From positions 8,976-72,975 of the forward strand of contig CAXTSM010000016.1 in the NCBI GenBank assembly GCA_964247025.1: DNA of 64,000 nucleotides, given 5' to 3'. Numbering within the stretch: the stretch's first letter is position 1; every line of letters begins with the position of its first letter. This DNA is from an uncultured Chthoniobacterales bacterium (GTDB taxonomy: Bacteria; Verrucomicrobiota; Verrucomicrobiia; Chthoniobacterales; JAATET01). Of the stretch, positions 7,473 through 64,000 are shown one piece after another. Under the pieces are notes generated by a model. The model saw only the letters and a program-made list of their open reading frames with translations. It searched no databases and was not told where the DNA came from. Made by a program: the position numbers and the translations under genes.

Positions 7473-7493
7473 GGGATTTTTCTCACGTGAAGG

Positions 7494-7536
7494 CGCGAGG
7501 CCGCGACGGAATGCTTCGGTTCTTCGCGGCCTCGCG
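7494..7536 (-). terminator. 13-bp perfect stem-loop downstream of tkt (possible terminator or mRNA stabiliser, no U-tract)
   Basis: CGCGAGGCCGCGA (7494-7506) and TCGCGGCCTCGCG (7524-7536) are exact reverse complements around a 17-nt loop. An outer GTGAAG/CTTCAC pair also flanks it. Confidence 0.4.
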
Positions 7537-7556
7537 GCTTCGCGCGGGCTTCACCC

Positions 7557-9539: not shown

Positions 9540-9657
9540 AAACGTCTTTTTGGAATGTCGGACGAGCAAATGAGACGCCCTGCCGGATGGCAAGCCCCGT
9601 TTGCCGTCTGCCGGTAGAATCGGGAAATGACCTCGTTTTCGACGCGGGGACGAATCC

Positions 9658-11301
9658 GTGGTATGTTCGCCGCCGGTGTTTGGGCGCATTCCATTTTTAC
9701 TCGCGGTCATGGCGGCGCTCGTTCGGCCGGGCCAGGCCGCCGCGCCGACGCGCTTCGACGTGGAGAACACGGTGGCGACGCTTCCGGAATCCGGCCGCGA
9801 GCCGTTCGGCTCGAGATTTTTTTTCACGGCCGACGCGCAGGTCATCTACCGGGTGCTGCCGGCGGACCGCAGCGACACGGATCCCGCGACGCGGCTGGAG
9901 TTCTGGTCGCCGGGCGCGACCGGCGCGCTGTTTCCCGCCGCGGGTTACCAGAGCCTGGAAGTCGTGGCGCTCAATGCCGCCGGCGAGGCGGTGGGCCGCA
10001 GCGTGACGGAGGATTCCCCCACGCCCAACCCGCACCAGGAGGCCGCGCTTTACTGGACCCCCGAGGGTGGCTCGGTGATCCCTTCCGGCTTCGATCCGGG
10101 CTTCAGCGGGCTCAAGGACATCGACGGCGCCGGTGACGCGGTGGGTTTCACGAACGGCGGGACCTTTCGATTCGTGCGTTGGAATGCCGACGCGCCCGCG
10201 ACGCAGGACGTGATCACGCCGCCGGCGGGATATCCCTACGCGGAGATCCACGGCGTCAGCGCCTCCGGCGAGACGCTGCTCTACGTCACGGACAACGACG
10301 GCAAGCCGCGACTCGCCGTCTGGGACGGGACGACGAGCCTGGTGATCGGCCCGGCGCCGGATGCGGCGGAAACGTTCTCGCCGGCCAACTGCGCCATGAA
10401 CGCCGGCGGCGACGCGGTGATGGTGCTCTTCGTGCCCAACGGCGGCTACCGGGTTATTTACATCCCGGCGGCCAATCGCGCGGGCTACCAGACCTTCTCC
10501 TTCCCCGGCCCGGTCACCGCCATTTACAACCTGCAAATCAGCGCCGCCGGCCTGGCGAGCTGCCAGACGTCGGCGAATTTCGTGAGCATCGTTTCCTCCC
10601 CCCGCGCGATGCAGAACTCCTTCGCCGGTTACAATCCGTTCCTGAACGCCGGCGGCGAATTCGTCTTCGGCAACCAAAGCAACCTGTATTACTGGGACGC
10701 GGCCGCCTGGTCGGGCGCCCCCGTCATCGTGCCGCTTCCGCTGCCCGCCGCGCCGGCCGCGCCCACCGTCGTCGGCTACAACGCCTACGGCCGCCTGCTC
10801 ACGCTCAGCGACAATTCCGCCCAGACGCTGCGCACGCTCTCGATCCTCGCGCCGTTTCCCCCGCGTCCGACGCCGACCCCGGCTCCCCCGCCGACGCCCA
10901 CCCCCGGACCGACCCCTGAACCGACCGCCCCGCCGACGCCCACCCCCGGACCGACCGCCACGCCCGCACCCACCCCGGTTCCGGCGGGCCGGATCACGCT
11001 CGAGCCGCTCCGGCCCTCGCTCGTCCTGGCGACCGGCGCCACCATGCGCGATCGCCGGCTCGTCTCCGCCCGGAAAACCGGCGAACCCGCCGGGCCGGTG
11101 CGCTTTCTGCTCCGGGGAACCATCCCCAGGGGATTGAAATTTTCCACCCTCGACGGGTCGCTGACCGGCCGTCCCGCGACCGCGCAATCGGTGGCGCTGC
11201 GCGTCGCGGCGACGTATTATTCCGCCGGCCGAAAAAAACAGAGCCCGTTCGTGACGATCAAAATCATCGTGCGAAAGACAGCCAGTCGCCCGTCGGCATG
11301 A
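9658..11301 (+). CDS. secreted hypothetical protein with Pro/Thr linker and C-terminal putative Ig-like (cadherin/dystroglycan-type) domain
   Basis: GTG start and signal peptide ([22 protein letters not shown]). Linker [40 protein letters not shown]. The C-terminal ...[21 protein letters not shown]... resembles a putative Ig domain. Confidence 0.6.
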
Positions 11302-16682: not shown

Positions 16683-17012
16683 ATGATCCTCAACGACGCG
16701 ATTCGCGCGACGCAGGATGTCGACCTGCTCATCGAGGAGTCGGTCGAGAACAACCAGCGAGTGATCAATGGTCTTTCCCGCCTTTCCGACGGAGCCGCGG
16801 CAGAGTTCACCCCGCGGGACTTCATTGAAAATGGAGTCGCGAATTGCCGACGAAGTCGAGGCCGACGTCCACACCCGCGCGTGGAAAGTCTCGTGTGCCG
16901 AGACCATCCCAAACGCCTGTCGGCTCGTCGTCCAAGGCGTCGAAATTCCGTATCTTTCATCGGCAGACCTCCGCGCGAACATCGGGCACTCCGTCGACGG
17001 CAAAGCGAATCT
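16683..17012 (+). pseudogene. frameshifted remnant of a nucleotidyltransferase-like (T-x-D-x-D LLI ...) gene
   Basis: Frame 0 reads MILNDAIRATQDVDLLIEESVENNQRVINGLSRL...FIENG. The sense continues in frame +1 as RIADEVEADVHTRAWKV...VQGVEIPYLSSADLRANIGH. The N-terminus appears truncated. The family assignment is only a resemblance. Confidence 0.4.
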
Positions 17013-17013
17013 T

Positions 17014-17307
17014 CCCTGTAGCCACGGCGCTCCGTCGCCGTGCGGCACGAGATAACGCGTCCCCCCCGGCGGCCTCGACGGCGCGGGCGGCGACACGAGT
17101 GAACTCCTGCACGGCGTTCCCTGTAGCCACGGCGCTCCGTCGCCGTGCGGCACGAGGTAACGCGCCCCCCCCGGCGGCCTCGACGGCGCGAGGCGACGAC
17201 ACGAGTGAACTCCTGCACGGCGTTCCCTGTAGCCACGGCGCTCCGTCGCCGTGCGGCACGAGGTAACGCGCCCCCCCCCGGCGGCCTCGACGGCGCGAGG
17301 CGGCGAC
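17014..17307. repeat. tandem repeat, about 2.8 copies of a 105-106-bp unit carrying a REP-like palindrome
   Basis: CCCTGTAGCCACGGCGCTCCGTCGCCGTGCGGCACGAG... recurs at 17014, 17119 and 17225. Each unit contains the hairpin CACGGCG-CTCCGT-CGCCGTG. Confidence 0.9.
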
Positions 17308-17730
17308 AAGGAGCATTCCAGGTCAACCGCCTTCCTGACCGCTCGACCCTGTTTGACCAAGGATTTTCTTCTCGTTGAAACCTGCCGCGCAAATTGCTTC
17401 GCCCGAAGCAGTCGAAAGTTGGTGGTTGCTTGGAATTATTCGGGGAAAGAAGGAAGCGGAAATTCAGCGTTAGCCAGGAGGGATTCGATAGACGTCGAGG
17501 TAAGGGCGGTCAGCTCCAAGGCGAGTGCCCTCCTCTTCTTCACTTTGCACGACGCCAAGTCACCTTGACCTGCGTTTCCACCGCATCCCCGAGATCGAAT
17601 AATCTCTCACGGGCTTGCAATATACATGAGGCCGAGAACATGAGGCCGAGAACAATCCATCCGCTTTTCGTGATCCTCGTGTAAAGAAGGCCACAAGAAC
17701 CCCGCCATTCAATAACCACCCCCGCCACCC

Positions 17731-18873: not shown

Positions 18874-18940
18874 CGGCCCGACCCGCCGGCATTCTCCCGG
18901 CTTCCCCGCCGGGCGAAATCTGCTAAACCCTCCCGCCGTA

Positions 18941-20609: not shown

Positions 20610-21417
20610 GAAGAGGTAGCCACGGCGCCCGCCGCCGGGCCGGGCGAGGCCGCCTTCACCTTGCACCTGGGCATGCGCCCCGAAGGAGCGGGGCGGCTCC
20701 AACGCCAGCCCGTGGCGATCTCGTCATCCCACGGCCAAGCCCATGCCCCTCCTTGTAGCCACGGCGCTCCGTCGCCGTGCCGGGTGAAGGCCGCCCTCGC
20801 CTTCCACCCGGGCACGCGCCCCGACGGAGCGGGGTGGCTCCAACGTCAGCCCGCGGCAATCTCGTCATCCCACGGCCACGCCTCTCGCTCCCTCACCTTG
20901 TCGCCACGGCGCTCTGTCGCCGTGCCACGCGAAGGCCGCTCTCACCTTGCACCCGGGCATGCGCCCCGACAGAGCGGGGCGGCTCCAACGCCAGCCCGCG
21001 GCAATCTCGCCATCTTACGGCCAAGCCCCCGCTCCCTCCTTGTCGCCACGGCGCTCCGTCGCCGTGTCGGGCGAAGGCCGCCTTCACCTTGCACCCGGGC
21101 ACGCGCCCCGACGGAGCGGGGCGGCTACAACGTCAGCCCGTGGCGATCACGTCCGCCCACGGCCACGCCTCCCGCTCTCTCCTTGTAGCCACGGCGCTCT
21201 GTCGCCGTGCCGGGTAAAGGCCGCCCTCGCCTTGCACCCGGGCACGCCCCGACAGAGCGGGGCGGCTACAACGTCAGCCCGTGGCGATCACGTCCGCCCA
21301 CGGCCACGCCTCCCGCTCCCTCCTTGTAGCCACGGCGCTCTGTCGCCGTGCCGGGTGAAGACCGCGCTCGCCTCGCACCCGGGCACGCCCCGACGGAGCG
21401 GGGCGGCTACAACGTCC
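20610..21417. repeat. array of about 5.7 copies of a 141-145-bp unit built from inverted REP-like palindromes (BIME-like)
   Basis: CCTTGT(A/C)GCCACGGCGCTC(C/T)GTCGCCGTG starts at 20751, 20896, 21038, 21181 and 21322, with a partial copy from about 20617. Each unit also carries CGCCCCGAC(G/A)GAGCGGGG(C/T)GGCT(A/C)CAA in inverted orientation and a third CCGTGGC...CCCACGG hairpin. Confidence 0.9.
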
Positions 21418-21662
21418 GCCGTTCTTTTATCGTCCGAGCACGCAAGTCACCCTCACCGGTATCTTTTCGCCCTCACCGGCATCTTTTTAGACGTTTTGAA
21501 GGTTGCCAGGCGCGCCGGTGTATTTTGACCGCCGCTTCGCGACTCAAACCGTTTAATTCGTCTCGCCCGCCTCTTTGATCCGAGGCGAAGACCTCTTCAC
21601 GGAATCTGAACCGCGTTTGTAAAAGCCTCGGGAACGCTTCGCGTCCTTTTTCGGCCTAAATC

Positions 21663-24600
21663 TTAGGCGCGGGCGGCGCGACGACGACGCTGCCACGCGA
21701 GGCCGCCCAACAAGGCCGCCATTGCGATCCCGTAAGTGGCCGGCTCTGGTATCGCGGTGAGGTTGAGGATACCGGTGCTCTCGGTGAAGGTGTAGGTCAG
21801 CGTCGCAGTGGAGGCGGTGAAGGTGCGGTCCCCGACGGAATAAAGTCCCCCCACGGTCCCATTTCCAGGAATGGTGAAATTCACCGCGGAGAAATCCGTT
21901 CCGCCCAACGAACTGAAACTGAAGAGATTGTAGCTATTCCCCGCGGTGCCGGCGCTGCCCAATAACAAATTGAGGGTGCCCCCATAATTAACCGTGCCGG
22001 TGACATCAAGCGCATCGTAGGTCGTCCCCCGCGTCGTGCCGTTGATCTCCAAGTTCGTGGTGCTGGCCGAGTCCAGGGTCAGATTGCCTGAGACCGTGAG
22101 CAGGCCAGGGCTGTTGCCGGGAGAAAGCGTGCCGCCGTTCACCGCGACGTTTCCGGTGATGGTGCCGCTTCCGCCCAACGTGCCGCCGGCGTTCACCGTC
22201 GTCGCGCTGGTGATCGAGCCATTGACGAGAAGCTTGCCGCCGTTCACCGAAGTCGGTCCCGTGTAGGTGTTCGCGCCGGAGAGCGTCATCGTTCCCACTC
22301 CTGCCTTGATCAGGCCATTGACCGCACCGGCGGCAAGACCGCTCCCCGCTTGATTGGATAGAGGGGTGTTCACGTTCAGGTCGGAAAGCGCGTCTCCCGT
22401 CGCGTCGGCCACATTGAAGGTGACGGAATCACCGCTGGTGTTGAATGTTCCAATCGCCACATTGTTGAAGCTTCCGGTGCCGGCGTTGATGTTGGTCGCC
22501 GCGCTTCCTCCCACCGTGACGGTTCCACGCAGGGAAAATCCCGGAAAGTTGACGGACGTGCCTCCGTTGCTCGTGATGGTTGCCCCGTTCAGGACCGGGT
22601 TGCTCAAGGAGGTATAAGTGTTGTTGCTCGCCAACGTGCCGCCGTTGACCGTCACGACGACGGGGCTGATCACGTCCGAGCCGCCCAGCGAGTCGTTCCC
22701 GTCGAAGCGCACCGTCGCTCCGCTGGCCACGTTCAAGGCGCCCGCCACGGTTCCGTTCGCGTAGACGGAGCCTCCGGCGCCAAGAACGAGCGTGCCCGCA
22801 TTCACGTTCGTCGCCCCCGTGTAGGTGTTCGCCGCGTTCAGCGTCATGGTGCCCGCGCCTATCTTGGTCAATCCGTTCGCCCCGTTTTGGTTGCTGAAAG
22901 AATTGTTGACGATCAAATCGGCCGCCGCGCTGCCGGTTGCGTCAGCCACGTTGAAGGTGGTGGTCGTGTCGGCGGCGCCAGGGGCGAAAACGCCGAGGGC
23001 GACGTTGTTGTTGTTTCCGGTGCCCGCGTTGAAATTGGTTGGCGTGGTCCCTCCCACCGTCACGGTGCCGCGAAGCGAAAAGGCCGGGAAATCCACACTT
23101 GGGCCGCCGTTCGCGAGCAGGGTGCCGCCGTTGAAAACGGGATTGCTCAAGGAGGTGTAAGTTCCATTGCTGGCCAAGGTGCCGCCATTGACGGTCACGA
23201 CCACGGGGCTCACCGCGCCTGATCCACCAAGGGTGTCGTTGCCATCGAACCTTACGGTCGCTCCAGTGCCGACCACGACGCTGCCCGCCACCGTGCCGGC
23301 GGAATAAAGTGACGCTCCGGCATCCAAGACAAGCGTTCCGGCGGTGACGTTCGTTATGCCGGTGTAAGTGCTGGCGCCGCCCAGCGTCATGGTGCCGGGG
23401 CCGGCCTTCGTGAACCCGCCCGCGGCATTGGCGAAGTCGCCGGATTGGTTGCGCAGCGGCGCGCCGACGATGAGGTCGGCGTTGGCATTGCCGGTGGCGT
23501 CCGCCACGGTGAAGATCGTATTGGCGCCCAGGTGAACGCCTCCGGTGGTGGCGGTTGCCGCCGTGGTCGAAATCGTGGAGGCGGCCGTACCTCCCACCGT
23601 CACGTTGCCGCGCAACGCGAAGGATTGGTAGTTCCCGGTGTCGGCGGTGTCGCTATTCGACATCGTGGCGCCATTTAGATTCAACGCGCCCAGGGTGGTG
23701 TAGCGGGTGGTGGTCAGGTTGCCGCTGTTGACCGTGATCGTGGGCAGCGTTCCCACGTTGCCTTGGTTTCCAAACCAATTGGTCGTGGTGCCCGACAGCT
23801 TGGCGCCAGGATTGACCGTGATCGTTTTTCCGGCGTTCGACAGCCCCAGGGCTCCCGAGCTGCCGTTATCGCTGGCGGCCGCTCCGACGTTCACCGTGCC
23901 GCCGTTGATCACGATCGGACCGGCAAACGTGCTGGCGCCGTTGGTAAGATTGAGATACCCGGTCCCCGTTTTGGTGATTCCGCCGCCACTGATGATCGCT
24001 CCAGAAATCGTCAGGTCCACTCCGCCCGTGACCGTCCCGGTCGCCACGTTGATCCCCAGGCTTCCGGCCGTGCCCGAGCCGGTAAAAGAGTCGATATTGG
24101 CCGAGAACGTGGAAGTCGTCGCGCTGGCGAGCGACGAGATGGTGGGGGCCGCGGCCGCATTCACGTTGAAGCGGAACAAGGAGGTGCCCGAGACGGTGCC
24201 GCCCGTCAGGTTGAAACTCGTGAGATAACCTTGATTTCCCGCGGAAGCGGTTACCGACCCTCCGTTCACGTTTATGGTCGAGACCTGGACTCCCGCGTTG
24301 TAACCCAAGGCGTCCCCCGCCGTCAGGGCGAGCGTCGCACCGGTATTGACCGTCACCACCCCTTGGACGGTTCCCGCCCCGCCACCTTTGTTCAGTGCGA
24401 GCGTTCCCCCGTTGACGATCGTCCCGCCGGTGTAGGTGCTGGAGCCGCCGAGCGTCAGCGTGCCCACTCCGGCCTTGGTCAGGCCGCCCGCACCGCCGAT
24501 CACCCCGCCAAGCGCCAGATTGCCTCCGCCCGTCGTCGTCGTGAAGGTATTGGTGGCGGCCATCGTGAACGCATTGTTGATGGTCTGGAGAGCGGTGCTG

Positions 24601-25004
24601 TTGTTGGTGATGCCGCCGCTCAGCGCAAACGAATTGCCGGTAATGGTGTAGGCCGATGCGCCGGAATTGAAGGTGAAGCCCCCGATGCTGAAGCCGGCCG
24701 CCTCGTTCTCATTCAGAGCGGTAATGCTGGAAACACCGAAATAAAGGCTGTCCCCCGCCAGGATCGTCCCGGTGGCGGCCCCGGGAGTCGTGGTCCCCGG
24801 CGTCCAGTTGTTCCCCGTGAAAGTCGCGTTCGCGGGCGTGGTCGACCAGGCATCGTTGGCCGCCTGGGCACACGGCACGAAGGCAGCTCCAGCAATCAAA
24901 ACGGAAAGACCCGTCAAGGCCGCCGCCGAAAGGCGCGGGCGGAAAGAAGAACGCGAACCAGCGGCGCGGTGCGAGGGTGATGAAAATCGGACGTTTTTCG
25001 GCAT
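21663..25004 (-). CDS. PEP-CTERM-anchored surface protein made of autotransporter-associated beta-strand repeats
   Basis: Signal peptide (...AFVPCAQA). Repeated G-T-L-T-L-x-G-x-N-T-Y-T-G-x-T-x-V-N-x-G-T-L motifs. The C-terminal IPEPATYGIAMAALLGGLAWQRRRRAARA is PEP motif, TM helix and Arg cluster. Confidence 0.9.
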   Translation of the reverse strand: MPKNVRFSSPSHRAAGSRSSFRPRLSAAALTGLSVLIAGAAFVPCAQAANDAWSTTPANATFTGNNWTPGTTTPGAATGTILAGDSLYFGVSSITALNENEAAGFSIGGFTFNSGASAYTITGNSFALSGGITNNSTALQTINNAFTMAATNTFTTTTGGGNLALGGVIGGAGGLTKAGVGTLTLGGSSTYTGGTIVNGGTLALNKGGGAGTVQGVVTVNTGATLALTAGDALGYNAGVQVSTINVNGGSVTASAGNQGYLTSFNLTGGTVSGTSLFRFNVNAAAAPTISSLASATTSTFSANIDSFTGSGTAGSLGINVATGTVTGGVDLTISGAIISGGGITKTGTGYLNLTNGASTFAGPIVINGGTVNVGAAASDNGSSGALGLSNAGKTITVNPGAKLSGTTTNWFGNQGNVGTLPTITVNSGNLTTTRYTTLGALNLNGATMSNSDTADTGNYQSFALRGNVTVGGTAASTISTTAATATTGGVHLGANTIFTVADATGNANADLIVGAPLRNQSGDFANAAGGFTKAGPGTMTLGGASTYTGITNVTAGTLVLDAGASLYSAGTVAGSVVVGTGATVRFDGNDTLGGSGAVSPVVVTVNGGTLASNGTYTSLSNPVFNGGTLLANGGPSVDFPAFSLRGTVTVGGTTPTNFNAGTGNNNNVALGVFAPGAADTTTTFNVADATGSAAADLIVNNSFSNQNGANGLTKIGAGTMTLNAANTYTGATNVNAGTLVLGAGGSVYANGTVAGALNVASGATVRFDGNDSLGGSDVISPVVVTVNGGTLASNNTYTSLSNPVLNGATITSNGGTSVNFPGFSLRGTVTVGGSAATNINAGTGSFNNVAIGTFNTSGDSVTFNVADATGDALSDLNVNTPLSNQAGSGLAAGAVNGLIKAGVGTMTLSGANTYTGPTSVNGGKLLVNGSITSATTVNAGGTLGGSGTITGNVAVNGGTLSPGNSPGLLTVSGNLTLDSASTTNLEINGTTRGTTYDALDVTGTVNYGGTLNLLLGSAGTAGNSYNLFSFSSLGGTDFSAVNFTIPGNGTVGGLYSVGDRTFTASTATLTYTFTESTGILNLTAIPEPATYGIAMAALLGGLAWQRRRRAARA

Positions 25005-31189: not shown

Positions 31190-31294
31190 TCCGCAGATTT
31201 CGCAGGTTTACGCCGACTTGGGAAAAGGCATTTTGCAGAAACGCTCCAATCGAGACTCCTGTATTTATCGGCGAAAGTCTGCGAAATCTGCGGA
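31190..31294. promoter_or_regulatory. 16-bp perfect inverted repeat bracketing a divergent intergenic region
   Basis: TCCGCAGATTTCGCAG (31190-31205) is the exact reverse complement of CTGCGAAATCTGCGGA (31279-31294). Each arm ends 4-5 nt from one of the two divergent start codons (31185 minus, 31300 plus). Confidence 0.85.
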
Positions 31295-35831: not shown

Positions 35832-35902
35832 TTAACCACTGAGACACAGAGGCACCGAGGAGACGGAATTTTCGAGGACTCCGGGTCTCCGTGCCTCCGC
35901 GG
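35832..35902 (-). other. intercistronic imperfect hairpin (atpD-atpC spacer) whose 3' arm ends ...CAGTGGTTAA
   Basis: GAGGCACCGAGGAGAC (35849-35864) pairs with GTCTCCGTGCCTC (35885-35897) as 7+6 bp with a 3-nt bulge. On the mRNA strand the 3' arm reads CCTCGGTG CCTCTGTG TCTCAGTGGTTAA, ending 9 nt before the atpC ATG. Confidence 0.6.
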
Positions 35903-35906
35903 TCGC

Positions 35907-37415
<1,509 letters not shown>

Positions 37416-38291: not shown

Positions 38292-38380
38292 GTCCGCAGA
38301 TTTCACGGGTGGGCGCCGATCTGATCCGGGAGAATCGAAGCCTTTTCATCAATCTGCGAAAATCTGCTTAATCTGCGGAT
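38292..38380 (-). other. intercistronic hairpin (atpA-atpG spacer) built on AATCTGC repeats
   Basis: TCCGCAGATT (38293-38302) is the exact complement of AATCTGCGGA (38370-38379). AATCTGC occurs three times in tandem (38351, 38361, 38370). Confidence 0.6.
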
Positions 38381-38391
38381 CGACGGGATTT

Positions 38392-43317: not shown

Positions 43318-43417
43318 AGGCGGTTTTGAATCTGGAAAACAGGAAGCCAGGAACGGCAGGGCCTCTTGGATTTTCCTGGCTTCCTGGTTTCCAGATTCCC
43401 GAGTCCTTCCCGCTTCC

Positions 43418-45256
43418 ATGTGCGGAATAGCCGGGTTCGTGGGGCGCGGGGAACGCGCCGACCTCGCGCGCATGACCGGCGCCATCGCCCACCGCGGTCC
43501 GGATGCGGACGGTCATTGGATCGAGGGATCGACCGGCGTCCACCTCGGGCACCGGCGGCTTTCCATCGTCGATCTCGCCGGCGGCGCGCAGCCGATGTGG
43601 ACCGCGGACGACGCGATCGGCGTCGTCTTCAACGGCGAAATCTACAACCACGCCGAGCTCCGCGAGCAGCTCGAGGCCCGCGGCTGCGCCTTCCGGACCG
43701 ACCACTCCGACACCGAGGTCCTGCTCCACGCCTACCGCGAATGGGGCGACGACTTCGTCTCCCGCCTCGACGGCATGTGGGCCTTCGCCATTTACGACCG
43801 CCCGCATCGACGCGTCTTCATCAGCCGCGACCGCTTCGGCAAAAAGCCGCTCTACTGGTTCCACGAAGCCGGCGTCTTCGCGTTCGGCTCCGAGCTCACC
43901 GCGCTCCTCGCCCACCCCGCCTGCCCTCGCTCCGTCTCGCCGGCCGCGCTCCGCAAATATTTCGCCTACGCGCTCATCCCCGCGCCGCACGCGATCCTCG
44001 ACCGCGTCTGGAAGCTGCCCGCCGGCCACAACCTCGTCTTCGACCTCCGCGCAGCGTCGCCGCGCGTCGTGACATACTGGGACTTCGTGCTCGCGCCCGC
44101 CGAGCCGGCGAAATCCGACGACGCGCTCGCCGACGAGTTGCTCGCCACGATCGATCGCGCCGTCCAGCGCCGGCTCATGGCCGACGTGCCGCTCGGCATC
44201 TTTCTCAGCGGCGGCGTCGACTCCTCGCTCGTCGCCGCGCTCGCCGCGCGCCACGTGGATCCCGGCGCGCTCCGCACCTTCAGCATCGGCTTCACCGAGG
44301 CGTCGTTCGACGAGCTTGCCTGGGCCAACCAGGTCGCCGGCCTCCTCGGCACGAACCATCGCACGGAAGTCCTCGACCTCGACCGCGCGCTCGAAGTCCT
44401 GCCCGATATTTTTGCCCGACTCGACGAGCCGCAGGGCGACGGCTCGCTGCTCCCGACATGGCTGCTCAGCCGCTTCACGCGGCGCCACGTCACGGTCGCG
44501 CTCGGCGGCGACGGCGGCGACGAGCTCTTCGCCGGCTACGATCCCTTTCTCGCGCTGCGTAAGGCCCAGGCCTACGCGAGACTCGTGCCCCGCCCGATGC
44601 ACCTCGCGATCCGCCTGCTCGCCCAGCGCCTGCCGGTCTCGCCCGCGAACCTCAGCCTCGACTTCAAGATCAAGCGCACGCTGCGCGGCCTCGGCCACCC
44701 CGCCGCCCGGTGGAATCCAGCCTGGCTCGGCGCGCTCGAGCCGGCCGAGATCGCGGATTTTCTCGGCGGCGACGGCGAGCCCGAGGAGCTCTACCGCGAG
44801 GCGATCGAGCTGTGGGATTCCTGCCCGCAGCGCGACGTCGTCGACCGCACGCTGCAGTTCTACACGAAGATCTACCTGCCCGACGGCATCCTCGCGAAGG
44901 TCGACCGCGCGAGCATGATGCACGGCCTCGAGGTCCGCGCCCCCCTGCTCGATCTCGAGGTCGCCGACTTCGCCCGCCGCCTGCCGCACCATTACAAGCT
45001 GCGCGGCCCCACGACCAAATATCTGCTCAAGCTCGCCGCCTCGCGCGTGCTGCCCGCGGACGTCGTCCATCGCAGGAAAAAAGGCTTCGGCTCGCCTCTC
45101 GGCCCGTGGTTTCGCGGCGGCCGCCTGGCGCCATCCTCGCCCGATGCCTTCACGCGGGGCCGCCTCGCCGCGCATCGCGCCGGCCGCGGCGACGAGCGGC
45201 TGTTCCTGTGGTGTCAACTCGTCTTCGAAGAATGGAAAAAGCGGCGCCTGCCATGA
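43418..45256 (+). CDS. asnB: asparagine synthase (glutamine-hydrolysing) family amidotransferase
   Basis: N-terminal MCGIAG (Ntn Cys) and the PP-loop FLSGGVDSS. 612 aa. Confidence 0.92.
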   Translation: MCGIAGFVGRGERADLARMTGAIAHRGPDADGHWIEGSTGVHLGHRRLSIVDLAGGAQPMWTADDAIGVVFNGEIYNHAELREQLEARGCAFRTDHSDTEVLLHAYREWGDDFVSRLDGMWAFAIYDRPHRRVFISRDRFGKKPLYWFHEAGVFAFGSELTALLAHPACPRSVSPAALRKYFAYALIPAPHAILDRVWKLPAGHNLVFDLRAASPRVVTYWDFVLAPAEPAKSDDALADELLATIDRAVQRRLMADVPLGIFLSGGVDSSLVAALAARHVDPGALRTFSIGFTEASFDELAWANQVAGLLGTNHRTEVLDLDRALEVLPDIFARLDEPQGDGSLLPTWLLSRFTRRHVTVALGGDGGDELFAGYDPFLALRKAQAYARLVPRPMHLAIRLLAQRLPVSPANLSLDFKIKRTLRGLGHPAARWNPAWLGALEPAEIADFLGGDGEPEELYREAIELWDSCPQRDVVDRTLQFYTKIYLPDGILAKVDRASMMHGLEVRAPLLDLEVADFARRLPHHYKLRGPTTKYLLKLAASRVLPADVVHRRKKGFGSPLGPWFRGGRLAPSSPDAFTRGRLAAHRAGRGDERLFLWCQLVFEEWKKRRLP

Positions 45257-46449
45257 GCGAGCCGCTCCGCATCCTCTGCCTCAACTACGAATACCCGCCC
45301 GTCGGCGGCGGCGGCGGCCGCGTCGCGCATCGCATCAACGCCGAGCTCGCGCGCCGCGGCCATGCCGTGCGCGTGCAAACCGCCGGGCTGCGCCATTTGC
45401 CGGCGCGCGAGACGGTCGACGGCGTGGAAATCTTCCGGGCCGAGTCGTTCCGCAGGAAGGAGGACACCTGCACCGTGCCCGAGATGGCGCTCTATCTCGC
45501 CACGAGCTTCCGGCCCGCCCTCCGCCTCGTGCGCGAATGGCGCCCGCACGTCATTCACGCGCATTTCGCCGTGCCTACCGGCGCGCTGGCGTGGGCCGTC
45601 TCGCGGCTCACCGGCACGCCCTACGTGCTCACCGCGCATCTCGGCGACGTGCCCGGCGGCGTGCCCGAGCAGACCGCCGGCCTCTTCCGGTTCGTCCAGC
45701 CATTCACCCGCCCGATCTGGCGGCGCGCGGCCGCGGTCACCGCCGTCAGCACGTTCGTCGCCGACCTCGCGGAGCGCGCCTACCACCGCCGCCCGGAAGT
45801 CGTGCTGAACGGCATCCCGAGCGCCCCCAATGAAGATTCCGAGCGCGGGAAAAAGGGAAAAGGGGAGGGACCCGAAACTTTCCCCTTTTCCCCTTTTCCC
45901 GCGCTCGAAACTCCCCCGCGCCTGCTCATGGTCGGCCGGCTGAGCGTGCAAAAGAACCCGTTGCTCGCGATCCGCGCGCTCGCGCTCGTTCGCGACCGGC
46001 CGTGGGAACTCCGCGTCATCGGCGACGGCCCGCTCCGCGCGGAAATGGAGCGCGAAGTCCGCGCGAACGATCTCGCGGCGCGCATCCGGTTCCTCGGCTG
46101 GCTCGACGCGCCCGCCGTCGGCCGCGCCATGTCCGACGCTGACGCGTTGCTGATTTCCTCGCGCAGCGAAGGGCTCCCGATGGCGGCGATCGAGGCGCTC
46201 TCGCACGGGCTCGCCATCGTCTCGACCCGCATCGGCGGCGTGGCCGACATCGTGGAGGACGGCGCGAACGGCCTTTTGGCCGAACCGACCGCGGAATCCT
46301 TCGCCGCCGCGCTGCGCAAAATCCTCACCGATCCCCGGGCGCTCCCCGCCATGCGCCGGGCCTCCGCCGCGCGCGCTTCCCGCTTCGATCTCCCCGTCTC
46401 CGTCGACGCCTACGAAGCGATCCTCAGGCGGCACTCACGCGCCGCGTGA
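45253..46449 (+). CDS. family 4 (GT-B) glycosyltransferase
   Basis: LRILCLNYEYPPVGGGGGRVA..., and a C-terminal E-x7-E region (SSRSEGLPMAAIEALSHGL). The ATG overlaps the asnB stop (ATGA). Confidence 0.88.
   Translation: MSEPLRILCLNYEYPPVGGGGGRVAHRINAELARRGHAVRVQTAGLRHLPARETVDGVEIFRAESFRRKEDTCTVPEMALYLATSFRPALRLVREWRPHVIHAHFAVPTGALAWAVSRLTGTPYVLTAHLGDVPGGVPEQTAGLFRFVQPFTRPIWRRAAAVTAVSTFVADLAERAYHRRPEVVLNGIPSAPNEDSERGKKGKGEGPETFPFSPFPALETPPRLLMVGRLSVQKNPLLAIRALALVRDRPWELRVIGDGPLRAEMEREVRANDLAARIRFLGWLDAPAVGRAMSDADALLISSRSEGLPMAAIEALSHGLAIVSTRIGGVADIVEDGANGLLAEPTAESFAAALRKILTDPRALPAMRRASAARASRFDLPVSVDAYEAILRRHSRAA
45841..45906. repeat. 66-nt near-perfect palindrome inside the GT4 coding sequence
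   Basis: GAGCGCGGGAAAAAGGGAAAAGGGGA...TCCCCTTTTCCCCTTTTCCCGCGCTC. 25 of the 26 outermost arm positions are Watson-Crick complementary. It is in frame and encodes ERGKKGKGEGPETFPFSPFPAL. Confidence 0.9.
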
Positions 46450-49723: not shown

Positions 49724-49819
49724 AACCACCGATCTCACGGATCACCCGGATCCATTCCCGAACGGCTCCCACCCTCATCGCCTCCTTCCCCATCCGTGCC
49801 ATCCGTGAAATCCGTGGTT
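49724..49819 (+). promoter_or_regulatory. 29-nt imperfect inverted repeat made of three 9-mers, upstream of the sigma-54 activator gene
   Basis: The 3' arm is CATCCGTGC CATCCGTGA AATCCGTGGTT (49791-49819). The 5' arm (49724-49752) is its reverse complement at 23/29 positions. The spacer is 38 nt, and the 3' arm ends 25 nt before the ATG at 49845. Confidence 0.75.
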
Positions 49820-49844
49820 AACTCCCTCCTGCCTTCCTGACCCG

Positions 49845-51323: not shown

Positions 51324-51430
51324 CCCCCGCATGAGCGCCGTCCCGCTCCCGGCACCCGTCTCCGGCGGAAGTTCGATCCCGCCCTCCGCGGCCGGAATGG
51401 CCCCCCATTCGCACCGCCCCCCAACCCCGC

Positions 51431-51682
51431 CGCGGGCGCCCGTGGTGCCCCCAAACCCTTGCTTCGCCCCCCCGCGGGCACCCGGAGCGTCCCCAAACCC
51501 TTGCTTCGCCCCCCCGCGGACACCCGTGGCGCCCCCAAACCCTTGCTTCGCCCCGCCGCGGGCACCCGTGGCGCCTCCAAACCCTTGCCTTGCCCCGCCA
51601 CGGACGCCCGTGGCACCCCGAAACCCTTGCCTTGCCCCGCCGCGGACGCCCGGGCTGCCTCTGGCTCTTCCCTTGTCCCGGC
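51431..51682. repeat. tandem repeat, 5 good copies plus 1 degenerate copy of a 42-bp unit
   Basis: CGCGG(G/A)C(A/G)CCCG(T/G)GG(C/T)GCCCCCAAACCCTTGC(T/C)T(C/T)GCCCC... starts at 51431, 51473, 51515, 51557, 51599 and 51641, with an exact 42-nt period. Confidence 0.9.
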
Positions 51683-51736: not shown

Positions 51737-52501
51737 ATGACGGCGACTTATCTTCTCGAGCGGGGGGCCTTTGTGATCGGAAAAGGCCTGCCGCTCACCG
51801 ATCGCGGCTTCCGCTACGGCATGTCCGTCTTCGAGACGATTGCCTGTCGCAACTCCACCCCGCTCCTCCTCGACCCGCACCTCGAAAAACTCACCGCCGC
51901 CGTCACGGCAACCGGGTTCACTCCCCCCGCCGGCTGGCTCGAGGCCATCCGCGCCGCCCTGCTCCCCCCGCCGATCCCAGAGGGCGTCGCCCGCGTCTAC
52001 GTCACCGCCGGCGATCACGACGGCGACGCATCCCGCGTCGCGCTCCTCTTCGAACCGCTCCCCGTGCCCGTCACCCTCTCCTCCGCCCGCGCTGTCACCG
52101 TCGACTTCACCGCGCCCACCCCCTTCGGCAAGACGGGCAACTACTGGCCGCACATCCTCGCCCGTCCCCCCTCCGGCGACGAAGCCATCCTCCGGGGCCC
52201 CGGCGGAGCCCTGCTCGGCGGCGCGATGGCCAATCTTTTTCTCGTCTGCGACGGCGCGCTCCTCACCCCCCGCGACCCCGTGCGCCGCGGCGTCGTGCAC
52301 GATTGGATCCGCGCAAAATTTTCCGTCACCGCCGCGGTTCTCACCCGCGCCGACCTCGCCACCGCGGACGCCGTGTTCCTCACGAACAGCCGTCACGGCG
52401 TCTGCAACCTCGACGCCATCGACGGCCGCGAACTCCCCGGCGACGGCCGCGTGAAATCCGTCTGGCGCCGCTACGCCACGGAGGTGCTCCGTGCGGCTTG
52501 A
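51737..52501 (+). CDS. class IV aminotransferase-fold protein (aminodeoxychorismate lyase-like)
   Basis: ...DRGFRYGMSVFETI..., ...FGKTGNYW (catalytic Lys region), ...AVFLTNS... ATG 51737 sits inside a longer ORF-track frame. Confidence 0.75.
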   Translation: MTATYLLERGAFVIGKGLPLTDRGFRYGMSVFETIACRNSTPLLLDPHLEKLTAAVTATGFTPPAGWLEAIRAALLPPPIPEGVARVYVTAGDHDGDASRVALLFEPLPVPVTLSSARAVTVDFTAPTPFGKTGNYWPHILARPPSGDEAILRGPGGALLGGAMANLFLVCDGALLTPRDPVRRGVVHDWIRAKFSVTAAVLTRADLATADAVFLTNSRHGVCNLDAIDGRELPGDGRVKSVWRRYATEVLRAA

Positions 52502-56736: not shown

Positions 56737-56833
56737 GCGCGCGGGGGCGGCGCCGTCGTTGGTCACCCGTGGGTGGTCATTGGTTCTGGTTTTTTCCGAC
56801 GACGAATGCCCGACGACGAATGACTACCGCCCA

Positions 56834-63236: not shown

Positions 63237-63908
63237 ATGGCGATGAAACCCCGCGAAATCCTTCTGGCCAGCGCCGTCGGCGTGCTGCTCGTCATCGCCG
63301 CCATCGCCTGGATCATCGGTCACGGCGACGACGCCAGCGGCGCCGCCAGCGCCCGCAACCTCCAGCAATGGGGCATCGCGCTGAACCTTTATCTCATCGA
63401 CAACGAGGCGCAGCTCCCCGAGGTCGGCGCCGCTCCCATCGCGGCCGGACAGGAAAAGGCCTGGTATAACACCCTGCCCACCTACCTCAGCCAGACCCCG
63501 CTCGCGGAGCTTCCTCCCGGCCAGCGGCCCCGGCCGGGCACGCCTTCCTTGTGGATCGACCCCGCCTCGAAAAAGCCGCATACCTGGGATCCCGAGGTTT
63601 TCTTTTTCAACTACGCGATGAACCGGGCGCTGCAGCCCCAGGCCGACGTGCGCAGCTTCAAGGTCAACGAGCTCAACTACCCCGGCAACGTCGTCTTTCT
63701 TACCGAGGTGAGCGACTACGAGCCCGCCGTCACCCCGGAGACGGTCGCGTTCCTCCACGGCAAGCGGCCCGGCAGCCCGACCGCGATCGCGAACGTCCTC
63801 TTCTGCGACGGCCATGTCGCCCCCGTCACCCGGGCCGTGCTCGTGGACGACGCCGCCTCGCGCTCCGCCGCCGCCGCGGAACACGGCGTCTCCTGGTTCG
63901 AACAATAG
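63237..63908 (+). CDS. DUF1559-like (pseudopilin-like, ...DGH C-terminal motif) protein without canonical prepilin cleavage motif
   Basis: N-terminal TM helix, ...ARNLQQWGIALNLYLIDNEAQLP (DUF1559-like), and C-terminal ...NVLFCDGHVAPV. The start is 1 nt after the previous stop. Confidence 0.6.
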   Translation: MAMKPREILLASAVGVLLVIAAIAWIIGHGDDASGAASARNLQQWGIALNLYLIDNEAQLPEVGAAPIAAGQEKAWYNTLPTYLSQTPLAELPPGQRPRPGTPSLWIDPASKKPHTWDPEVFFFNYAMNRALQPQADVRSFKVNELNYPGNVVFLTEVSDYEPAVTPETVAFLHGKRPGSPTAIANVLFCDGHVAPVTRAVLVDDAASRSAAAAEHGVSWFEQ

Positions 63909-64000
63909 CCACAAAGAACGCAAGGATCTCACCGGCCTGAACGTCCGCGCTTCCTCGCGGCTACTCCCCGATGACGCTGATCGCGAGCCCGCGCACATGC

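Follow-up and report, generated by a model that had tools for sequence, protein, structure and literature searches.

Elements in the window

The window, that is, the whole 64-kb stretch of DNA analysed here (66.5% G+C), carries the genes of an atp operon, two glycosyltransferase genes and an asparagine synthase gene, and genes for transketolase, PAPS reductase, a CBS-DHH pyrophosphatase, FUSC and DUF1656-like proteins, UppS and an NtrC-like protein. Short repeated motifs lie in spacers beside these genes and, in one case, inside a gene (Table 1). A sequence-only reading of this DNA had described these motifs as a dispersed family of 2-3 tandem 8-10-mers placed just before start codons, in part with an inverted copy farther upstream, and all of the sequences and coordinates cited in it are present in the window. 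Chance expectations were derived from 100 dinucleotide-preserving shuffles of the window. The core that had been seen at the 31190, 31281 and 38292 regions is GAAATCTGCGGA, which occurs exactly three times (31190-31201, minus strand; 31283-31294, plus strand; 38293-38304, minus strand) and in none of the 100 shuffles (0 expected). GCGAAATCTGC has three matches, including that at 18913 (0.11 expected from shuffles), and AATCCGTGGT has two, at 9653 and 49809 (0.14 expected). The recurrence of the motifs is far above chance and non-random.

The proposed grammar of tandem units was recovered by TRF, which detects 8-10-mer arrays at seven sites (7524-7544, 31267-31292, 37387-37412, 43373-43392, 45847-45866, 45879-45900 and 49790-49816). 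An inverted-repeat search pairs the tandem-unit arms into five hairpins (I1, I2, I4, I5 and I8), with arms of 21-30 nt that are 82-96% complementary, and folding adds inverted partners in all three atp spacers; both analyses agree with the earlier view that the arm sequences differ among loci yet pair within each locus. The combination of tandem 8-10-mers and an inverted copy is found at no fewer than eight sites of the window, and the elements at 7486-7544, 43328-43398 and 45837-45910 are members beyond those listed before.

Table 1. Repeat elements and element-like sequences in the window (MFE, kcal/mol)
Feature	Position	Strand	Location	Arms and remarks
Element of CGCGAAGC-type 8-mers	7486..7544		between transketolase and PAPS reductase genes (both minus strand)	arms 21 nt, 90% complementary
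Lone AATCCGTGGT 10-mer	9653..9662	+		same as family B tip unit
Probable truncated family A arm	18908..18923	+	17 nt 5' of CBS-DHH pyrophosphatase ATG
Family A palindromic element	31190..31294		between divergent DUF1656-like and FUSC genes	arms 31190-31216 and 31268-31294, 27 nt, 89% complementary; loop 51 nt
CTCnGTG...GTGGTTAA-family element	35832..35905		atpD-atpC spacer	arm TTAACCACTGAGACACAGAGGCACCGAGGAGACG paired with TCTCCGTGCCTCCGCGGTCG; MFE -34.6
Element with AATTCTGT units	37337..37414		atpG-atpD spacer	common to relative L002, absent in L001
Family A element	38292..38381		whole atpA-atpG spacer	arms 38292-38321 and 38350-38381
Element with TTCCTGGC units	43328..43398		between GT2 glycosyltransferase and asparagine synthase genes	arms 26 nt, 96% complementary; MFE -51.8
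Palindrome of GGGAAAAA / TTTCCCCT 8-mers	45837..45910		in frame in GT4 gene 45253-46449 (+)	arms 30 nt, 93% complementary
Family B element	49724..49821		between uppS and ntrC-like genes	arms 49724-49751 (AACCACCGATCTCACGGATCACCCGGAT) and 49792-49819 (ATCCGTGCCATCCGTGAAATCCGTGGTT); fits family B consensus
Arm-like GCCACAAAGAACGCAAGGA	63908..63961		abuts stop codon	weak candidate partner 63944-63961; uncertain

Two of the window elements belong to an arm family termed here family A and one to family B. In the element between the divergent genes, the arms are placed such that the sense strand of either neighbouring gene reads TCGGCGnnnnnCTGCGAAATCTGCGGA. The first arm of the atpA-atpG element shares 28 nt of homology with the 31190 and 31268 arms; its second arm (CAATCTGCGAAAATCTGCTTAATCTGCGGATC) belongs to another subfamily, so that the two pair over only about 10 bp. 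This spacer measures 3-50 nt in most relatives. The family B element is similar to an array of an Opitutus MAG that adjoins a GxxExxY gene (see below). As for the other families, that of the atpD-atpC spacer also occurs in the flanks of metagenome loci, and the TTCCTGGC units recur in the relative L043; the spacer between the GT2 and asparagine synthase genes of L002 holds a hairpin other than that of the window.

The palindrome in the GT4 gene, a gene identified by its Pfam matches, encodes a 20-aa insertion (EDSERGKKGKGEGPETFPFS) in the linker between the two domains of the protein, and this insertion is missing from 11 of 11 orthologues (60-78% identity). About 580 nt 5' of this palindrome, the stop codon of the asparagine synthase gene and the start codon of the GT4 gene overlap as ATGA (45253-45256), a classic translational-coupling junction.

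Three of the members proposed earlier stand only in part. That at 18913 supplies the third GCGAAATCTGC match, but it corresponds only to the two inner units of a 28-nt arm and therefore looks like a truncated arm. At 9653 the AATCCGTGGT sequence is present, but as a lone 10-mer without tandem, inverted or hairpin context; judged from its sequence, it may be a remnant or a chance match. The arm-like sequence at 63909 does lie just 3' of a stop codon, but its partner is degenerate and is left unpaired in the minimum-energy fold. A further spacer hairpin, at 56737-56833, includes a 14-nt tandem repeat (CCGACGACGAATGC, 1.9 copies) and may be another member of this class of elements.

The anatomy of the arms was derived from consensus sets of n = 109 for family A and n = 27 for family B. 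Each arm consists of about three direct units with a period of 9-10 nt, in which a conserved 7-mer core (ATCTGCG in family A, ATCCGTG in family B; other families have cores of their own) alternates with variable linkers of 2-3 nt, and the arm is not self-complementary. The outermost unit terminates in GGAT or GGTT. The families are named by their ends, AATCTGCG...GCGGAT for family A and ATCCGTG...GTGGTT for family B, and their tips are ATCCGCAG...CTGCGGAT and AACCACGG...CCGTGGTT, respectively. Two arms stand in a fixed orientation, the core-complement arm first, around a loop of 3 to about 130 nt; as a palindrome is its own reverse complement, the order 'G-rich arm first' belongs to the element and not to the orientation of its insertion. 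The loops vary in length and sequence, are unrelated among the three window arms that are homologous over 28 nt, and are unrelated even within one genome. Conserved cores separated by free linkers would be a pattern typical of repeated protein-binding sites rather than of slippage copies.

Distribution in relatives and metagenomes

The surroundings of the atp elements were compared in 80 related atp loci of Chthoniobacterales/Terrimicrobiaceae (1.29 Mb), in which genes were called by our own heuristic seeded on the atp genes, with approximate start codons; the best AtpG relative in the species-genome collection is 77% identical. In these loci the length of the A-G, G-D and D-C spacers varies between 1 and more than 600 nt, many of them measuring only 3-12 nt and lacking an element; the elements are accordingly not structures conserved among orthologues. 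The conservation in orthologous spacers on which a selected function was to be judged is not seen, although two of the window elements are shared with L002. Gain and loss are visible at short distances. L001 lacks a block of about 77 nt that corresponds to the atpG-atpD element, and in further close pairs an element in one genome faces a short spacer in the other. In one spacer of L006 (11819-12121) and L007 (13474-13678), which are 93% identical, there are three indels of about 33 nt, each of them one (C)CGTAACGGATGCRMAGCAACGGCCGGG repeat unit, two direct and one inverted; the number of repeat units also differs between L050 and L052. L005, 88% identical to the L006/L007 pair, has a different repeat family in the same spacer.

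The same grammar is frequent in the relatives with other units (CTCTCAA, AAATCCT, CGTTGAA, TCCTCCG and others), and the CTCTCAA and AAATCCT arrays are head-to-tail copies of one unit in variable copy number. Over the 1.29 Mb of the 80 loci, arrays with a period of 7 are nine times denser outside called genes than inside, which agrees with the earlier impression that such runs are common in Verrucomicrobiota, and those with periods of 8, 10 and 11 are 2-3 times denser. The arrays of the relatives show strand polarity, being G-poor and C-rich near starts and G-rich after stops. A strong inverted partner within 250 nt accompanies 22% of the non-coding arrays (periods 7, 8, 10 and 11) and 0% of the coding arrays. 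Another widespread palindromic repeat, CTGTCATTCTGAGCGAAGCGAAGAATCTC...GCTTCGCTCAACATGACAG, occupies atp spacers of several Chthoniobacterales (L017 12297-12455; L018 9760-10000 and 12302-12489; L020 5471-5665; L060 9896-9994).

Family A was also sampled in metagenome contigs by an exact scan for GCGAAATCTGCGGA, which yielded at least 120 loci, about half of them chance matches in coding sequence. Among the matches listed, the remaining loci carry a canonical element, ATCCGCAGATTnCGCAGATTnCGCAGATT - loop - AATCTGCGnAATCTGCGnAATCTGCGGAT, on contigs that span 40-67% G+C, and all 60 canonical array hits fall outside the genes that we called. For the 55 elements among these listed matches, a gene end comes within 30 nt on 21 sides and a gene start on 2 (13 versus 2 for paired copies, 8 versus 0 for single arrays). 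In the same listed matches, paired arrays occur 19 times in one orientation and 0 times in the other, and the copies have sharp conserved tips that give way to unrelated flanks; one locus (L140) holds a nested element. The flanks of 20 family A elements contain no consistent direct repeat that would indicate a target-site duplication, and no conserved insertion site was seen in family A flanks. Taken literally, the possibility raised beforehand that the motifs descend by decay from a single MITE and carry target-site duplications does not hold, as there are several families and duplications are absent from these flanks; an origin as mobile repeats is nonetheless favoured.

Arm families A and B at GxxExxY nuclease genes

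A search for ORFs between distant array pairs brought up, in L178, a 119-aa PDDEXK_3 / TIGR04256 GxxExxY gene with perfect family A arrays on both sides, oriented as usual; no transposase-sized ORF was found between distant array pairs. A paralogue in L193 (36% identical) is bracketed by AACCACGGATnnCACGGAT... and ...ATCCGTGnnATCCGTGGTT, the family of the window element at 49724-49821. These two are the first of 13 nuclease loci and were found through the motif itself, whereas protein similarity alone served to retrieve the remaining loci. In 13 of 13 loci, GxxExxY genes of about 125 aa are flanked by family A or B arms in the same fixed orientation. Homologues of subfamily A (L201/L202, L203, L204-L207, L208, L209, L210 and L211) all have family A arrays at the gene borders, and those of subfamily B (from Verrucomicrobia MAGs and an Opitutus MAG; L212, L213, L215 and L216-L223) all have family B arrays. 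Counted by locus, the eight subfamily A loci have family A arrays in 8/8 and family B arrays in 0/8, the five subfamily B loci have them in 0/5 and 5/5, respectively, and the 1.29-Mb background contains three family A arrays and one family B array. Families A and B are physically tied to GxxExxY genes, and the tie includes the matching of subfamilies.

A core-complement array, if present on the 5' side of the nuclease gene, ends between 12 nt inside the ORF and 78 nt before the ATG, and a core-strand array, if present at the 3' end, starts between about 40 nt inside the ORF and 55 nt past the stop codon. In L201, L211, L212 and L215, a whole hairpin element or hairpin cluster stands at the gene border instead. 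The clusters at L212 873-1332 and L215 183-1273, which adjoin GxxExxY genes in two Verrucomicrobia MAGs, are regular tandem series of family B hairpins with alternating arm orientation and a period of about 108 nt. In L204-L207 and L209, from a Nitrospirae MAG and several metagenome contigs, the GxxExxY gene and its upstream array are inserted between yebC and ruvC, and some overlap the ruvC start.

The GxxExxY proteins retain the D...ExK catalytic residues, and a structure model (pLDDT 96) has a minimal PD-(D/E)XK nuclease fold, nearest to lambda-exonuclease-like enzymes, Cas4 and Hjc; a PDB sequence search with the nuclease gave no homologue. One GxxExxY query has more than 7,000 relatives at E <= 1e-10, many of these genes lie on very short contigs, and one exact sequence is present on 66 contigs. 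Neither the window nor any of the 80 related atp loci was found to contain a GxxExxY gene, and tblastn with 120 GxxExxY proteins (E up to 1e-4) gave no match in any gene-less element of the loci analysed. A literature search on the repeat sequences, GxxExxY, PDDEXK_3 and Chthoniobacter found no description of such repeats or of a nuclease-repeat link; the GxxExxY family has been listed as of unknown function, with multiple transfers (PMC3424549).

As the same arm families flank GxxExxY genes elsewhere, with matched subfamilies, the window copies are most likely gene-less relatives of these cassettes. With moderate confidence, we consider the motifs to be arms of small palindromic repeat elements that are gene-less derivatives of GxxExxY cassettes, in a manner analogous to REP sequences and RAYT. 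The nuclease, reading the heptamer cores, would spread or maintain the gene-less copies, as RAYT would for REP/REPIN or a parent insertion sequence for MITEs, and the copies would persist at sites that tolerate a clean hairpin, namely directly past stop codons, within the short spacers of operons, sometimes in gaps between divergent genes and, once, in frame in a protein linker. We infer from these associations that the arms are recognised or mobilised by the nuclease and that the remaining families of the window are part of the same system. A wider proposal, which we put forward tentatively and with somewhat less than even confidence, is that GxxExxY proteins are the dedicated enzymes of an undescribed superfamily of mini-mobile elements with 7-mer-triplet ends, in which enzyme lineage and core co-evolve and gene-less hairpins have settled in operon spacers, and now and then in coding linkers, of Verrucomicrobiota and several other phyla.

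If the link holds, a very large orphan protein family would gain a testable function, and a PD-(D/E)XK-based counterpart of REP/RAYT would emerge. Intergenic repeats that clutter Verrucomicrobial and other genomes, and that are likely mis-called as small ORFs or regulatory motifs, would be explained as well. The strict pairing of nuclease subfamily and heptamer core suggests a compact, retargetable mode of sequence recognition. In annotation, these motifs are better masked as repeats than taken for start-codon signals. The elements also place hairpins of predicted stability -23 to -52 kcal/mol within core operons, atp among them, and the lineage apparently lacks Shine-Dalgarno (SD) initiation.

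Alternative explanations and known repeat systems

The elements might instead be RNA hairpins under selection, as 3'-end protectors, partial terminators, RNase III sites or switches of translational coupling that a ribosome finishing the upstream gene would open, a possibility that we regard as unlikely. Stems that begin 2-16 nt past stop codons, their strength as predicted by folding, the arm complementarity of up to 96% and the presence of three elements within a single atp operon would all suit such a role, and there are precedents in REP elements, Correia elements and the (ATCTTTC)n hairpin of hmw1A that is cut by RNase III (PMC12721329). However, selection on RNA structure, which the sequence-only reading had considered, leaves no trace in the folded strand: among 26 same-strand elements the sense strand is more stable in 12 and the antisense strand in 14, G-U pairs number 79 and 81, and several atp hairpins fold better on the antisense strand. 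Nor does a need for pairing alone explain a fixed orientation and conserved cores with free linkers. Presence in orthologues is patchy, and one copy lies within a coding region. No T run follows the arms, and terminator-like sites number 19 in the window, with 17 expected and none at the elements. Intrinsic terminators can be dismissed as an identity for the elements, given the chance-level scan and the missing U tract; a canonical promoter and terminator scan of the window likewise stayed at chance level. Rfam returned no family at gathering score and nothing relevant by E-value, and its sub-threshold matches were generic microRNA hairpins only, at 45835-45912. Effects on mRNA may still arise as side-consequences of the elements, and strong stems after stop codons in an SD-less lineage make them plausible.

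Adjacency is not the same as recognition, and the arrays could serve the nuclease gene as targets for insertion or as signals for its expression. The arrays would then be owned by the host as pre-existing protein-binding arrays or hairpins, with GxxExxY genes homing into palindrome loops or using the arrays as promoter, operator or processing signals, and would not be ends that the nuclease mobilises. The nuclease gene does always occupy the loop position, in some loci an array extends across the start or 3' end of the ORF, and only 1-2 of about 55 elements bear the gene among the matches listed; the strict match between nuclease subfamily and array family is equally expected on these terms. 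We nevertheless hold host ownership to be quite unlikely, as the appearance of gene-less copies at new sites would go unexplained.

Local generation without mobility appears just as improbable. Here slippage would expand units of 7-10 nt, which template-switch 'palindrome correction' would then carry over into the second arm, a process that has been proposed for long simple-sequence repeats. The period-7 arrays of the relatives fit such a process in their variable copy number (for example, L050 versus L052), their ninefold enrichment outside genes and their strand polarity, which agrees with that of GGGNATC repeats (PMC4692102). Families A and B do not: a fixed number of about three units with variable linkers is not expected of slippage, one 28-nt arm is repeated at unrelated loci, the same families span contigs of 40-67% GC among the matches listed, and the arrays specifically flank one gene family. 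Plain slippage may, however, account for the TTCCTGG, GGGAAAAA, AATTCTG, CTCnGTG and CGCGAAGC families and for the arrays of G-free heptamers in Chthoniobacter relatives.

The position before a start codon, once taken as the defining trait of the family, turns out to be incidental. In same-strand spacers of the window, the elements come as close to the upstream stop (2-16 nt) as to the downstream start, and whole spacers are filled by them. The proximity to start codons arises because the elements fill short spacers. The gap between motif and ATG ranges from 4 to 25 nt, and the motif is found after stops too. In the window and L001-L080, SD-like motifs precede 5-7% of confident genes, equal to a control region, and the leaders are G-poor (G 13-18% at -15..-1, with C about 45% at -2/-1), from which these Chthoniobacterales appear to initiate translation without SD pairing. 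The motifs are not Shine-Dalgarno or other ribosome-binding sites, as SD motifs stay at control level and the distance between motif and ATG is not fixed. That the tandem 8-10-mers are initiation or 5'-UTR signals bound by the ribosome, S1 or another RNA-binding protein is very unlikely: the scarcity of SD motifs, G-poor leaders, G-poor arrays that stop 1-9 nt 5' of many relatives' start codons and the precedent of TAACTGA repeats in Beggiatoaceae (PMC4679880) would favour it, but the conserved atpD initiation region (AAAACCGCATTCATC-ATG) lies 3' of the element and is kept in the element-less L001, many orthologous spacers measure 3-12 nt and have no element, one element is inside the GT4 gene, the same arrays stand after stops and on both sides of nuclease genes, and family A keeps to gene ends (21 sides versus 2 among the matches listed).

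The favoured explanation, gene-less derivatives of nuclease cassettes, finds its closest parallel in REP/REPIN sequences and their RAYT enzymes (Bertels and Rainey, 2011, PMC3116915; Di Nocera, 2013, PMC3733652). Common to both are short extragenic palindromes that lie mostly past stop codons or in operons, with no target-site duplication (in the sampled flanks), a hairpin doublet as the unit and occasional intragenic copies. Shared as well are the many gene-less copies per enzyme gene, the repeats flanking that gene and the match between enzyme lineage and repeat family. However, no GTAG or CGTC tag is present at the tips of families A and B, each arm consists of three direct repeats whereas the REP unit is a small imperfect palindrome, the loops are unrelated between copies, and the same families occur across many phyla. 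Moreover, the flanked gene encodes a PD-(D/E)XK GxxExxY protein, unlike RAYT, an IS200/IS605-like Y1 HUH transposase, and no RAYT was seen in the loci examined.

MITEs such as the Correia/NEMIS elements of Neisseria are similar in that a short interior is enclosed by terminal inverted repeats of about 26-30 nt, in being intergenic and co-transcribed, and in forming long RNA stems that RNase III can cut. Unlike MITEs, the elements have no TA or other target-site duplication (in the sampled flanks), no conserved interior and no DDE transposase parent that was seen. Small dispersed repeats (SDR) of Nostoc, with units of about 21-33 nt, were reportedly described by Elhai in 2008. They resemble the present elements in that small units are gained and lost between close relatives (as in L006 versus L007) and in the association of hairpins with heptamer repeats, but they differ in taxa and sequences, and no enzyme is known to have been proposed for SDR. 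Cyanobacterial STRR heptamer repeats are said to go back to Mazel in 1990. Other intergenic heptamers are TAACTGA in Beggiatoaceae, Cyanobacteria and Bacteroidetes (PMC4679880), GGGNATC in Xanthomonas and Nostoc (PMC4692102) and LSSR (Mrazek, 2007, in the form in which PMC4679880 cites it). Intergenic heptamers share with the elements tandem units of 7-10 nt that are enriched between same-strand genes, before starts or after stops, strand polarity, the rarity of SD motifs nearby and a patchy phyletic spread. They are, however, exact head-to-tail repeats of variable copy number, usually with no inverted partner and with no associated gene reported, whereas in families A and B the number of units is fixed at three, the linkers vary and the inverted arrangement is constant.

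Rickettsia palindromic elements (RPE) are a further class, reportedly described by Ogata in 2000. Like RPE and like the intragenic REPs that have been described (PMC3733652), the palindrome at 45837-45910 sits in frame at a permissive coding site, but it belongs to other sequence families and is the single coding copy here.

The window also holds repeats of other kinds. Tandem arrays at 20616-21420 (141/287-bp units, 5.7 copies) and 17012-17308 (106-bp units, 2.8 copies) are built of TTGTAGCCACGGCGCTCCGTCG / CGACGGAGCGGGGCGGCTACAA palindromes and, from their sequence, resemble REP/BIME clusters with a GTAG tag; GTAG repeats are abundant in the verrucomicrobium Opitutus terrae (PMC3733652). Beside the large array, 21663-25004 (minus strand) encodes a protein of 1113 aa that contains a PEP-CTERM motif as well as five PATR (passenger-associated transport) repeats. 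At 51425-51652, 5' of an ORF that starts near 51737, a 42-bp unit is repeated 5.4 times with 88% matches; it reads as PRRGHPWRPQTLAS repeats in one frame and is probably non-coding repeat DNA.
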